NCBI GenBank assembly: GCA_015228815.1 | Contig: JADGCV010000012.1 | Location: forward strand, 26,749 to 90,748 | Length of the DNA stretch: 64,000 nucleotides | Reading direction: 5' to 3' | Source: Magnetococcales bacterium | Lineage (GTDB): Bacteria > Pseudomonadota > Magnetococcia > Magnetococcales > UBA8363 | Shown: positions 12,790-19,847 of the stretch, in pieces | How the letters are laid out: each line of letters starts with the position of its first letter | Numbering within the stretch: position 1 is the stretch's first letter | Translations under genes and position numbers: made by a program | Notes under the pieces: model-generated | Seen by the model: only the letters and a program-made list of their open reading frames with translations | What the model was told of the DNA's origin: nothing | Databases searched by the model: none

Positions 12790-15063
12790 AAAGGTTTTTT
12801 CCTGGTTGAAATCAAGAGCCGCCCCGGTCGTCTGACCGGCAATGCCGGCGTGTGGGTCTGGATCCAGGAGGGTCGGGAGCATGTGTACGACAACCCGCTC
12901 CTACTTGCCAACCGCAAGGCCAGGAAACTCATCGCTTTGCTGCGCCGCCAGAAGGCGTTGTCGGATCGCACGTTATTTCTTGAAGCGCTGATTTTCTGTT
13001 CCGCGGAGGATCTCGAATGCGATCTGGATCAGCATGCGCGCACCGGGGTGTGGCTGAGAGACCGGGAAGTCGAAGGGGACAAGCCGGGTCGTCAGGGGAT
13101 CCTCCATGCATTGACCAAGGCGCTGACTCCGGAAGAGGTGCGGCGATTCCAGCGCATCGACCGCTCCATGGCCAGGAAGGTCTGCCGGGGCCTGGAAAAG
13201 GCAGGGATTCGCCGCGCCAACACGTACCGGCGGGTTGGCCAGTACCAACTGGGCCATCTGCTGGCCGAGGAGGACTTCTACCAGGAGTGGGAAGCACGGC
13301 ATGTCACTCTGGAGAAAATCTTCCGCCGGGTGCGGATCTATTCGGCTTCATCCAGGGAGAAGGGCACCCGGGAGGCCATCATCCGTGCGGCCCGGCGGGA
13401 GTTCCAGATCCTGGAAGGCATCGAGCATCCCGGGATTCTGCGCGCGGAGAACTATGTCGAGCATGAACTGGGGTTCACTCGGAGTTGTTGGAGCGTTTCG
13501 GGGGTGATCTGCTTCGGGCGTTCAACCATTTGGAGGAGCACGGCATTTCCCACCGGGACATCAAGCCGGGCAATCTGGGCCTGGTGGCGTCCGGCAGCAA
13601 GGGCAAGCTGCATCTGATCCTGTTTGATTTCTCCCTGGCGAGGATCCCGCCGGACAACATTCGCGCCGGCACGCCGCCCTATCTGGACCCGTTTCTCAAG
13701 GATGCCTCGCGCCGCCGGTGGGATCTGCATGCCGAGCGCTTTGCGGCGGCGGTCACTCTGTACGAGATGGCCACGGGAACCGTTCCCAAGTGGGGCGACG
13801 GCAGGAGCGATCCTGCGCTCCTGAGCTGTGAGGCGACCATTGACAGCGCGTTGTTCGAGCCTTCTCTGCGTGAGGGGTTGAGCGCATTTTTCACCAAGGC
13901 GCTGGCGCGTTCGGTCAAGAATCGCTTCGACACCTGCGAGGAGATGCTCAAGGCGTTCAGCCAGTTGTTCCGGGAGGTGGAACGGGCCGAACGCAGTACG
14001 GGCGCAGGCCACGCCGGCGATTGGGCCACCCTGCCGGAGCCGATCTCCCTGGAAACCCCGGTGGTGTTCCTGTCGTTCAGCGACCGGGCATTGAGTGCCC
14101 TTGAGCGGATGGATTTGCGGACCGTCGGCGATTTCCTGGGTGTCCATATCGACGGCCTCTCCCGCATTCGGGGGGGGGGACGTCAGACCCAGAAGGAGCT
14201 GACCCAGGTCCATCGCACGCTGGCGCCGCGTTTTCCGGAGTTGCATGTCACCGGCCCGCCCCAAAGCGGCGATGGACGATGCCTTGGCCCCGGAAGCGGA
14301 GGTGCAGAGCGTTGACCTGTTGGCCCGGCAGTTGATCCCGGCTCCGGCGCGGGCGGGTTCGGACGCCGAGCCTCGCGTCCTGGAGCTGCACCTGGGTTTG
14401 AAGGATCCGGTGGCGGTTTTCTCGACTCAGGCTCTCTGGCCCGGGCAGGCCGAGATTGCCGATGCGGTGGGCGTGACCCGGGGGCGGATCAGCCAGATCG
14501 TGGGCAAGGCGCGCACCCTCTGGGCCAAGCGGATTCCATCATTGACGGCGCTGCGTGGGGAGATTGCCGAACTGCTGAACGGGGCGGGCGGCGTCATGAC
14601 CCTGAGCGAGTTGAGCAATGCGGTGTTGGCTTTGCGGGGTTCCGCCCGGATGGCGCCGGAGCGTTTTCGCACCGCCCAGGCGGTGACCCGGGCTGCGTTG
14701 GAGGTGGATCGCGGCATGAAGTCGCCGCGTTGGATCGAACGGCGCGGCGACGGGCAGGTGTTTCTGGCCCAGGACGAGGACGACCGGGGGCAGGAGCGGG
14801 CCGACTATGCCCTGAGGCTGGGCCGCGCCGCCGATGAGCTGGCCGGGCAGGATCCTCTGCCCACGCCGTCCCGGGTGATGGAGCGGCTGCAAGGGGAGCG
14901 ATCGCCTCGGGATATGGCCCTGCTTTCCACCGCTCGTTTGCTGAAGCTGGCCGTCAGCGCCTCTCGCCATGCGGCCCTCTCCAGCCGGTTGGAGATCTAT
15001 GCCGGTGATTACCCCGGGCGAGTGGGCGCGTATTCCGGATGGGTGGATTCATGGACTGCATGA
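12790..15063 (+). pseudogene. pglW: PglW-like NERD + Ser/Thr protein kinase, 5-prime truncated and frame-disrupted
   Basis: Three consecutive ORFs lie in different frames.
- 12703..13617: after about 29 repeat-derived codons it reads FLVEIKSRPGRLTGNAGVWVWIQ..NPLLLANRKARKL, the C-terminal half of a NERD domain, followed by kinase N-lobe sequence REFQILEGIEHPGIL.
- 13485..14315: the catalytic core HRDIKPGNL, DFS, GTPPYLDPF.
- 14245..15063: an HTH-like tail.
The kinase segment between EHELG and LLERFGG is missing at about 13465-13485. Confidence 0.6.
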
Positions 15064-15488
15064 GCGGCCCAACGCATGAGGGCGAGAGAATTTCATGATC
15101 AATGCCGCGACATTATTGAAGGATTTGAAAGGGCTGCTGCCCGGTCTGGAGGAGGATATCCGCGCCCGGCTGGAGGAGATGCCCGAAGAGAAGGCGCGGC
15201 TGGTCTGCAACAGGCCCTGGCCCTGGCGGGTTATTTCATCAGCATGAAGGAGAACGAGGGCTGGTCTGCCGAACGACTCACCCCCCTGCTGGCCGGATTG
15301 CTGGAGTTGTTGCCCTGGCTCAAACAGTGGCACAATGCGCCGGATCCCACCTTCGATACCGGCATGGGGGATCACTTCGCCGGATTCATCGACGAACAGT
15401 TGCGCGAACTGAAGATGACCGAAGCGAAGGTGCGATCCTGGTCTCCACCCCAGACCGCACGCCGTCGAGGAGGGAAAAGGAACATGTC

Positions 15489-19100: not shown

Positions 19101-19847
19101 ACCGCATGGGAACGGGCCGTGGATCGTGCGGGATCCATTTTTGGCATTTCTGTCTCACCTCTGTGCAATGCCGCCAATGTGGTCAACCTGGCCCAGGAGA
19201 TTCAGAACCGGCTGGCCCTCCATCTGGAGCCTTGCCGCCGTTTGGCCAAGGCGCTGGGAGAACGGAGCCAGGCGCTTTCTCTGCCCGGGGATGCTGCCCG
19301 CAAACAGAGCGCGGATTCCGTGCTCGCTCTGCTGGAAAAAATGCGCCATGTCGAGGCCAATGCCCTGGTGACCATTCTGTCCGAGTGGGCGATCCCCACC
19401 AGCAAGGAAAGCCTGGGCAAAAGCCTGAAGAAAGCCGCCGATGTTCTGGCCTCCCTGAATGGCGCCGAATGGGACATTCTGGAGGTGGCATGGGGATTGA
19501 CGGACGAACGGCAAACCCTGGCTCGGGCCAACCGGGCCAAGGTGATCGACGCCCTGTCCCGGGACGAACTGGTGGTTTCCCTGGGCGCTGTGTTGCGGGA
19601 GGCACGGAACGAAGCGGTGCGATTGTTGGGGCTACCAGCCAAACCGAGGCCACCCGTTTCGCCACCGGAACCGCCCATGGTCATCCCGTCGGGTCCGCGC
19701 GGTCGCAGGATTTTCGCGACCGTATCCCGGCAGGGGGTGGCCAGGGCCGAGGCCAAACGGGTTTTGCAAGGGATCGAACAGCAACTGGACCAGCACCCTC
19801 ATGCCTCGATGACCATCGAAGTCCGCATCGAAGGGGAAGAGGAGTAG
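16188..19847 (+). CDS. BrxC/PglY-family BREX P-loop ATPase (1219 aa)
   Basis: The N-terminus reads [25 protein letters not shown]...[23 protein letters not shown]. It parallels the BrxC pattern (VVT..L...., [10 protein letters not shown]), and the size is about 1200 aa. It lies next to a PglW-like kinase remnant. Confidence 0.8.
   Translation: [1219 protein letters not shown]

Follow-up and report, generated by a model that had tools for sequence, protein, structure and literature searches.

A degraded type-2 BREX (Pgl) operon with an intact pglY gene in a Magnetococcales genome

Phage growth limitation (Pgl) in Streptomyces coelicolor A3(2), a type-2 bacteriophage exclusion (BREX) system, is the closest described counterpart of the locus reported here, which lies at positions 12778–19863 of a 64,000-nucleotide stretch of contig JADGCV010000012.1 (the whole stretch is called the window below) from a Magnetococcales metagenome-assembled genome (MAG). 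The Streptomyces system requires all four pgl genes as well as PglY's Walker A motif; its PglX is toxic in the absence of PglZ, and pglZ can be deleted only if pglX is inactive (PMC4365076). In type-1 BREX, BrxC acts in a complex with BrxB and PglZ (PDB 9zll; PMC13326643). According to a 2026 survey, HEPN and HEPN–MNT genes rank with the most frequent auxiliary effectors found inside BREX loci, PglW has a BrxB-like C-terminal domain that is the type-2 analogue of BrxB, and PglW is missing from about 20 per cent of type-2 taxa or loci (PMC12839542).

With the S. coelicolor system the Magnetococcales locus shares gene families and gene order, the architecture of PglW (NERD domain and tandem kinases) and of PglX (Eco57I-type methyltransferase with DUF7008), and an identical PglY Walker A motif, GSFGSGKS; intact Magnetococcales relatives continue with PglZ, BrxD and BrxHI. 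It differs in that pglY is the only pgl gene still intact in the window, pglW and pglX being deletion-riddled pseudogenes and pglZ, brxD and brxHI being absent, and in that Magnetococcales carry between pglX and pglY a HEPN–MNT pair that is not described for S. coelicolor. Likeness to type-1 BrxC of Acinetobacter (9zdx, 9zll; PMC13326643) extends to the predicted fold of the N-terminal 520 residues of PglY and to its Walker A and B motifs, whereas the partners that stimulate or recruit BrxC, namely PglZ and the BrxB analogue formed by the PglW C-terminal domain, are deleted in the window. The HEPN–MNT pair resembles toxin–antitoxin modules of the HepT–MntA type (type II/VII), with a PF05168 HEPN gene beside a PF01909 MNT gene that encodes the GS...DxD motif, in overlapping open reading frames (ORFs). 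Like the HEPN genes embedded in BREX loci as auxiliary or backup effectors (PMC12839542), it sits inside a defence operon. It differs from HEPN–MNT toxin–antitoxin pairs in that HEPN precedes MNT and in a divergence between lineages that far exceeds that of the flanking pglY.

The window locus is a degraded type-2 BREX (Pgl) operon in which the lesions can be mapped against intact relatives. Having lost the methyltransferase domain and both kinase domains as well as PglZ, BrxD and BrxHI, it cannot perform BREX/Pgl defence; methylation and phage exclusion are impossible at this locus. We favour, with a probability of about 0.55, the reading that it is a dead operon, part-way through deletional decay. 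A first-pass annotation of the same DNA had proposed a decaying type-2 BREX/Pgl locus with an intact PglY; the sequence features that it listed are present where it placed them, and the PADLOC run that it suggested matches the PglW, PglX and BrxC–PglY models to ORFs of the window.

The ancestral operon and its lesions

At 70–82% amino-acid identity, the nearest relatives come from Magnetococcus sp. XQGC-1, Magnetofaba australis and further Magnetococcales MAGs. The ancestral order in Magnetococcales comprises eight genes, pglW-pglX-HEPN-MNT-pglY-pglZ-brxD-brxHI, and is seen in L004, L041 (from Magnetococcus sp. XQGC-1), L042/L043 and L047 (from Magnetofaba australis). In these eight-gene loci pglW encodes about 1410–1440 aa (NERD and two kinase domains), pglX about 1180–1200 aa (Eco57I/MmeI-type methyltransferase and DUF7008), HEPN 125 aa, MNT 108–115 aa, pglY about 1215–1230 aa, pglZ about 900–910 aa, brxD 438 aa and brxHI about 700 aa. 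L001/L002 and L044 carry the same operon without the HEPN–MNT pair (six genes). Operons of one or the other form are intact in L001, L004, L041, L042, L044 and L047. Intact relatives with the same gene order and 70–87% nucleotide identity served as references for lesion mapping, for which we used PADLOC and Pfam, tblastn, blastn, junction inspection, multiple alignment and clade-specific hidden Markov models (HMMs). Nucleotide homology to L001 (blastn) is collinear, at 83–93%, across every surviving piece in the order W-X-Y-Z, and orthology and synteny with the intact loci establish descent from a complete type-2 operon.

The pglW gene lacks aa 1–77, 311–628 and 1142–1400 (numbering of L001 PglW) and has a 5-nt frameshift at 14250. 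The surviving fragments, aa 78–310, 629–1141 and about 1401–1436, lie in three frames, and no intact PglW is encoded. At the left end, homology to pglW starts at 12778 at the protein level and at 12790 at the nucleotide level, at aa 78 within the NERD domain, of which only profile positions 47–96 of 111 survive; the first-pass annotation had correctly described a 5'-truncated kinase gene with the distal half of the NERD domain. A direct repeat of about 180 bp, with its second copy 23 kb away, ends at the same point. Inside the repeat are the last ~14 codons of a minus-strand gene for a protein resembling methyl-accepting chemotaxis proteins (MCPs), and it also spans the first ~10 codons and the upstream region of a coiled-coil gene. 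An MCP ORF lies at 35778–38900, and a copy of the miniature inverted-repeat transposable element (MITE) described below lies about 80 bp from the second repeat copy. Since a repeat with the 3' end of a chemoreceptor gene abuts pglW, we infer one deletion that ran from a chemoreceptor paralogue into pglW and took the 5' end of the operon.

The frame changes that had been noted near 13470 and 14250 are both real. The first is the junction, at 13473|13474, of a 955-nt deletion that removes aa 311–628; the segment between a kinase N-lobe and a catalytic loop is indeed missing, as annotated, but the junction joins two kinase domains, fusing the N-lobe of kinase 1 out of frame to the C-lobe of kinase 2. 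The second is a deletion of 5 nt (CCGGT) after 14250 within CCGGTCCGG, in a short direct repeat; it is the sole small frameshift in pglW, the two other small gaps seen in the multiple alignment being in frame. A third lesion had been overlooked: a deletion of about 820 nt at ~15000 removes aa 1142–1400 and with them most of the C-terminal domain. It was mapped, like the others, by aligning the kinase fragments to full-length L001 PglW, as the annotation had suggested. The internal deletion junctions show at most 2–4 nt of microhomology on inspection. A G10 homopolymer at 14172–14181 in the remnant is in frame, relatives carrying the interrupted GGGGGTGGG there; this run recalls the phase-variable G tract of S. 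coelicolor pglX.

There is no full-length pglX, but the earlier claim that the gene is absent was imprecise: an internally deleted pglX survives (codons 1–36 and about 1096–1192), and the short ORF fragments reported from the gap at 15064–15488 are pglX itself. The internal deletion measures 3187 nt (junction 15203|15204) and includes the methyltransferase domain (Eco57I/MmeI_Mtase, aa ~230–460 in L001); intact PglX is therefore lacking. The stop codon of the remnant overlaps the HEPN start (ATGA).

At the right end, homology extends 16 nt beyond the pglY stop codon, whereupon a MITE starts at 19863. As the first-pass annotation stated, a MITE stands in place of pglZ downstream of the ATPase gene, with four pglZ codons remaining before it; beyond this stub, tblastn and the clade-specific HMMs (E ≤ 0.01) found no match to pglZ, brxD or brxHI in the 64-kb window. 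The element beside pglY (19863–20089) has terminal inverted repeats of about 50 nt and a hairpin fold (z = −5.6). Its terminus, GTAACCGTTCAGACCCC, has six matches in the window against 0.43 expected and is absent from 47 loci (L001–L047). The family consists of three window copies of 116–395 bp, small and devoid of ORFs, as is characteristic of MITEs. The copies at 32819–33213 and 35461–35578 have perfect 8-bp target-site duplications (GCTGAGGC and GGGATGGC, respectively); the copy beside pglY has none (GCCCGATG on the left, GAACGGTT on the right). A missing target duplication and a stray 10-nt terminus are what one would expect after a deletion associated with the MITE or after two copies had recombined.

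The pglY ORF is uninterrupted over 1219 aa, as had been annotated, and matches the BrxC–PglY model end to end. PglY is 82% identical to its orthologues in intact loci and 100% identical to an NCBI protein entered as 'MAG: phage resistance protein'. That was the single 100% match of the homologue search, the next being at 82%, and an exact-protein look-up found no further contig of the same organism on record. With no relative closer than 82%, the deletions cannot be dated by relatives. The Walker A motif occupies residues 70–77 and Walker B, LFLDE, residues 263–267. An AlphaFold model of residues 1–520 (pLDDT 78.5) has a BrxC-like fold, with Acinetobacter BrxC (9zll/9zdx) as its best structural match (Foldseek E 6e-11, TM-score about 0.55, sequence identity about 17%), followed by ORC/Cdc6. 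A sequence search of PglY against the PDB gave no match, and a profile search matched BrxC around Walker A only, together with spurious-looking summed matches to TALE repeats. The latter fall at residues ~478–521 (~17620–17750) as weak, repeated single-repeat matches (QRLLPVLCQAHGL...), each non-significant, so that only their sum scores; they probably reflect chance or a shared helical-hairpin pattern.

PglY keeps both Walker motifs and 123 of the 124 family-invariant columns. The exception is R312Q (CGG to CAG), unique to the window protein, where 118 of 118 other full-length homologues have arginine; in the AlphaFold model the residue sits in the loop directly after strand β-4 of the AAA+ core. 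As the profile match was limited to the Walker A region, no correspondence could be drawn between R312 and K326 or R330, the arginine fingers reported for BrxC (PMC13326643). On the reading favoured here, R312Q may be the first sign of pglY decay.

Selective constraint and the fate of pglY

Constraint was compared by relative-rate counting of changes unique to one lineage, at sites where sister and outgroup are identical, with L001 as the sister and, for pglY, four outgroups. In the pglW remnant (735 codons), 31–44 nonsynonymous differences are specific to the window lineage compared with 9–17 for L001 (binomial p 0.0004–0.0007; Fisher p 0.001–0.004); synonymous counts are equal, and pN/pS is 0.22–0.26 in the window and 0.06–0.09 in L001. 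The excess is distributed along the remnant, for which reason we rejected a junction-alignment artefact as its cause, and it corresponds to about 0.026–0.029 substitutions per site of unconstrained evolution. Since no in-frame stop and just one small frameshift have accumulated in the remnant, the relaxed period was short. In the pglX remnant (121 codons) the ratio of nonsynonymous to synonymous differences is 8:6 in the window and 3:10 in L001, the same trend as in pglW in numbers that are too small. For pglY, pairwise Nei–Gojobori dN/dS (omega), a measurement that the first-pass annotation had called for, is 0.19–0.20 against L001, L004 and L003 and 0.12–0.20 over eight relatives, which is within the range of 0.09–0.22 found among the intact loci themselves.

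As pglY is not relaxed while the pglW remnant is, the decay must have been stepwise. To judge from substitution patterns, pglY stayed under purifying selection well after pglW lost constraint, which proves stepwise decay, not present function. Moreover, dN/dS is blind to a recent release from constraint, and the integrity of the ORF alone is no evidence of selection, since by a simple geometric estimate six random lesions over an operon of ~18 kb would miss the 3.7-kb pglY about one time in five (~0.2).

The explanation to which we give slightly better than even odds is stepwise decay in which the partners of pglY were lost only recently. The ancestral eight-gene operon suffered at least five separate deletions and one 5-nt slippage frameshift. 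At the left end, pglW was joined at codon 78 to what is left of the 3' end of a chemoreceptor gene; two further deletions lie within pglW and one, of 3.2 kb, within pglX; and a MITE-associated one removed pglZ-brxD-brxHI. Lost through these lesions were the kinase/sensor and the methyltransferase, the PglZ effector, and both of the accessory NTPases. Constraint on pglW would have gone first, pglX and pglZ-brxD-brxHI being lost later, with pglX probably before pglZ because PglX is toxic without PglZ in S. coelicolor. Since some 20 per cent of type-2 loci do without PglW, a system lacking it may have worked until the recent loss of pglX and pglZ-brxD-brxHI. On this account pglY would have been under normal purifying selection for nearly the whole branch and would be intact because its partners were lost only recently; the HEPN–MNT pair probably persists as a self-stabilising toxin–antitoxin-like module and may disfavour deletions that span it, and pglY, left with no independent job, would be next to decay.

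Several observations weigh against so recent a loss. Lineage-specific nonsynonymous differences in pglY (38–69 in the window, 50–73 in L001) do not differ with any of the four outgroups, and with a lineage pN/pS of 0.11–0.17 in the window and 0.15–0.19 in L001 no relaxation is detectable. Had pglY been neutral for as long as pglW, it would be expected to have gained about 42 additional nonsynonymous changes along with about 3.1 nonsense mutations, none of which is seen; the probability of no nonsense mutation is about 0.04, and by our arithmetic the difference is about 3 standard errors. If the trend in the pglX remnant is real, the system died while pglY stayed constrained. Mismatches of PglY at columns conserved among 119 full-length homologues (1 of 124 columns at 100%, 2 of 222 at 97% and 7 of 361 at 90% conservation) are at or below the family median. 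Finally, the flanking deletions end close to HEPN–MNT–pglY: downstream, 16 nt beyond the pglY stop codon; upstream, 285 nt short of the HEPN start codon.

These points would be accounted for if selection had preserved HEPN–MNT–pglY as a functioning unit of three genes once the other BREX genes had gone, which we consider possible at rather less than even odds. PglY would then be a DNA-binding AAA+ sensor or switch controlling the HEPN RNase, with MNT as antidote or regulator, in an abortive-infection-type defence, or it would have some other BREX-independent role. Such retention would explain why pglY is constrained (omega 0.11–0.17) on the very branch where the pglW remnant is relaxed (0.22–0.26, p ~0.001), with pglX tending the same way, why its ORF is intact when some three nonsense mutations are expected at the pseudogene age of pglW (P ~0.04), why the conserved-site content of PglY is normal, and why HEPN, MNT and pglY are all intact with deletions ending just outside the block. 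It would also fit the coupling of HEPN and MNT to pglY through overlapping stop and start codons in this clade, the known pairing of HEPN, fused or adjacent, with BrxC-like DUF499 ATPases in BREX-related systems (PMC12839542), and the existence of a second locus, L003, in which pglX was lost independently and the remaining genes were kept. However, no other orphan HEPN–MNT–pglY or orphan pglY occurs among 55 informative loci, and the sole other pglY scrap, in L040, is plainly decaying. The known functions of PglY and BrxC need PglX, PglZ and a BrxB-like partner, all deleted here; the operon has lost its 5' end together with the presumed promoter, no sigma-70-like promoter being detected in a weak test; R312Q alters an otherwise invariant residue of the ATPase core; and a recent loss of constraint is invisible to dN/dS, the pglX-remnant signal alone being not significant. 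That a minimal HEPN–MNT–PglY cassette, its ATPase bereft of methyltransferase, PglZ and kinase, survives as an autonomous defence or stress module is in our view unlikely. The choice posed by the first-pass annotation, between very recent decay and independent retention of the ATPase, was the right question, which the data narrow without deciding.

Other loci bear on the same choice. Where pglY is complete and at least 2 kb of downstream sequence is available (55 non-redundant loci), pglZ stands beside it in 54, and a near-complete pglX is present in 40 of the 41 loci with at least 8 kb upstream, which means that an orphan pglY is not an established architecture. Relatives drawn from the metagenome scan (at most 50% identity over the full length, up to 66% on short fragments) were used for these architecture statistics only. 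The one locus without pglZ beside pglY, L048 (49% PglY identity), has a gene for an SNF2-type helicase at 4301–6379 after pglY, within which the contig ends, and may represent a different BREX-related architecture. In L003 (2479–2832) pglX is deleted except for aa 1071–1188; HEPN, MNT and pglY are intact, pglW is unbroken over the part present on the short contig (aa 618–1438) and pglZ is unbroken to the contig end. A pglX deletion common to L003 and the window, which would hence be ancient, was rejected, as the window keeps aa 1–36 and 1096–1192 and L003 only aa 1071–1188. In L045/L046, pglZ is broken into several frames (L045 13699–16592); loss of the gene from L045 was rejected because the whole profile is still covered, so that the gene is fragmented and not deleted. 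L040 (6248–10433) retains only a frameshifted 5' piece of pglY (aa 1–22 and 43–177) and a scrap of MNT. Given this independent damage in L003, L045/L046 and L040, BREX inactivation appears to be recurrent in the order Magnetococcales.

That the lesions are assembly or sequencing artefacts (a collapsed or chimeric contig, homopolymer errors) and that the organism has an intact BREX operon is very improbable: the window does come from a MAG, has the G10 run in pglW and contains flanking repeats and MITEs of the kind that can mislead assemblers, but the three internal deletions of 0.8–3.2 kb have their junctions in unique, non-repetitive sequence with little or no microhomology, unlike assembler collapse, the frameshift stems from 5 nt lost within a short direct repeat and not at a homopolymer, the G10 run being in frame, the 64-kb window holds no second copy of the missing parts, and the nonsynonymous excess in pglW is evolutionary, not technical, evidence of pseudogenisation.

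The HEPN–MNT pair and the surroundings of the locus

The HEPN and MNT ORFs of the window overlap by 22 nt and MNT has the motif YGSHARGEATEWSDIDV, so that the two form an adjacent HEPN and GS...DxD MNT pair. HEPN has the same length and position in L041, L042, L045, L047, L003 and L004, and the position of MNT is orthologous in six relatives. In intact loci the HEPN start overlaps the pglX stop and, in most of them, the MNT stop overlaps the pglY start. Intact loci of Magnetofaba australis, Magnetococcus sp. XQGC-1 and several metagenomes have the pair between pglX and pglY. When 85 loci were screened with HMMs it was found in the Magnetococcales clade only; in many other clades the pglX|pglY junction holds different cargo, of 1.7–6.8 kb. 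The pair is ancestral operon cargo in this clade, not a product of decay. We therefore rejected a decay-driven placement beside pglY, the pair being there in six related loci, several otherwise intact; the description of a HEPN/MNT pair that 'now precedes' the ATPase gene was misleading in this respect. With dN/dS of about 0.2 for HEPN, and for MNT of 0.11–0.16 to five relatives and 0.29 to L004, the range of about 0.1–0.2 shows coding constraint only, the toxic and antidote roles being predictions from the genes.

Synonymous divergence is a mosaic. The pglW and pglX remnants are closest to L001 (dS 0.35) and pglY is about equidistant from L001, L004 and L041 (dS 0.52–0.59). HEPN and the 5' part of MNT (15489–16060) are saturated (dS >1.8; omega about 0.1–0.2) against L004, L041, L042, L045 and L047, and homology to L004 resumes at 16061, inside MNT. 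Since dS exceeds 1.8 here and is 0.5–0.6 in pglY, the accessory cassette was exchanged by recombination with a breakpoint near 16061. Cassette exchange is usual for defence cargo.

Table 1. Surviving parts of the pgl operon and adjoining elements (PADLOC PglW is model PDLC02512, 1403 positions; aa numbers of PglW and PglX refer to L001)
Feature	Positions	Strand	Evidence
Left junction, ~180-bp repeat	12611–12790	.	90% identical to 35657–35835; repeat search, pairwise alignment
pglW remnant A: distal NERD, linker, kinase 1 N-lobe; frame 1	12778–13473	+	tblastn 85% identity (aa 78–310); clade HMM 55–287; PADLOC PglW 56–285 in ORF 12703–13617, E 7e-66
pglW remnant B: kinase 2 C-lobe (HRDIKPGN, DFS), RNA-polymerase alpha-CTD-like (C-terminal) domain; aa 629–~888; frame 3	13474–14250	+	tblastn aa 629–903 at 13473–14291; Pfam Pkinase 106–257/263, RNA_pol_A_CTD; PADLOC PglW 613–868 in ORF 13485–14315, E 1.3e-93
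pglW remnant C: winged helix-turn-helix region, aa ~890–1141; frame 1	14251–15000	+	tblastn aa 890–1141; PADLOC PglW 876–1117 in ORF 14245–15063, E 2.2e-56; junction
pglW C-terminal tail: last ~25–36 codons, original stop at 15077–15079; frame 2	14996–15079	+	tblastn aa 1401–1436; HMM 1382–1414; blastn 93.5% to L001 4704–4765
pglX 5' remnant: codons 1–36 (MINAATLLKDLKGLLPGLEEDIRARLEEMPEEKARL)	15095–15203	+	tblastn 92% to aa 1–36; blastn 90%; 7-orthologue alignment
pglX 3' remnant: last ~97 codons (~1096–1192), DUF7008 end; out of frame with 5' remnant	15204–15492	+	Pfam DUF7008 278–366/368, 1.8e-26; PADLOC PglX 1094–1185/1189, 2e-28
HEPN gene, intact, 125 aa	15489–15866	+	Pfam HEPN 1.2e-12
MNT gene, intact, 108 aa, GS-x10-DID motif	15845–16171	+	Pfam NTP_transf_2 1.6e-9
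pglY, intact, BrxC/PglY AAA+ ATPase, 1219 aa	16188–19847	+	PADLOC BrxC-PglY 1503.6 bits over 1–1215
pglZ stub: start and three more codons (TTG CGC CCG ATG)	19851–19862	+	L001 pglY–pglZ alignment; blastn homology to 19863
MITE-like element (19863–20089) and 10-nt terminus fragment (20090–20099)	19863–20099	.	

The locus lies in a defence island, as judged by a CRISPR array and genes for RAMP, SMC-like and SIR2-like proteins upstream. The array (8031–9444) has 19 copies of the 37-nt repeat GTCTCAATCCCCTTTCATGCGGGGCGATGACTGCAAG, and upstream of it the minus-strand genes at 1938–7883 encode a RAMP-superfamily protein, an SMC-like ATPase and a SIR2_2-domain protein. Between array and operon, the minus strand at 11933–12640 encodes a 235-aa coiled-coil protein with a C-terminal hydrophobic segment, consisting mostly of 33-nt (11-aa) tandem repeats (KELDxKxxTSI). 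On the other side, the cluster at 20123–26981 encodes a radical-SAM enzyme (minus strand; weak pVip-like PADLOC match), a pyrophosphatase-like protein, a 437-aa ORF, an AIR-synthase-related protein, an adenosine-deaminase-like protein and an APH-type phosphotransferase, and may be a nucleotide-modifying or defence cluster. Three tandem paralogous genes at 51454–53840 share the motif KGDW..(F/L)(I/L)xTDG.P(T/S)D (vWA/TerY-like). An Rfam scan of 7500–22000 gave no match, and a scan of 12400–20300 found no sigma-70-like promoter and no excess of terminators, in a weak and uninformative test.

Significance for BREX decay in Magnetococcales

Other degraded defence systems, such as BREX loci with a disrupted pglX and type-2 loci without PglW (PMC12839542), resemble this one in that toxic or costly parts are lost first; the window locus likewise lies in a defence island with mobile elements at its breakpoints. 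It differs from them in that its decay can be followed one lesion at a time by comparison with close relatives that are intact, and in the measurable gap in constraint between the pglW remnant and the surviving pglY. The locus belongs, in degraded form, to a known system and is a case of ordinary genome decay, except that pglY, on the evidence of its codons, still looks selectively maintained.

As a relic, the locus shows cleanly, and in a form that can be reconstructed completely, how a large defence system of many genes is taken apart. The pattern is in keeping with the rule known from Streptomyces genetics, by which pglZ can be lost only once pglX has been inactivated. The independent, non-identical losses of pglX in L003, of a working pglZ frame in L045 and of nearly everything in L040 suggest that BREX is frequently inactivated in Magnetococcales. 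In this order the HEPN–MNT pair is a conserved member of type-2 BREX, apparently translationally coupled through overlapping stop and start codons.

The main value of the locus lies in this well-resolved decay series, and the constraint on pglY is the remaining question. If the three genes have indeed been retained, HEPN–MNT–PglY would be a separable functional core of Magnetococcales type-2 BREX, which would explain the unrelaxed pglY, and the cassette could sense foreign DNA and release the HEPN RNase. Such retention would be the first indication of a BrxC/PglY ATPase functioning outside BREX and would bear on the question of how BrxC works.

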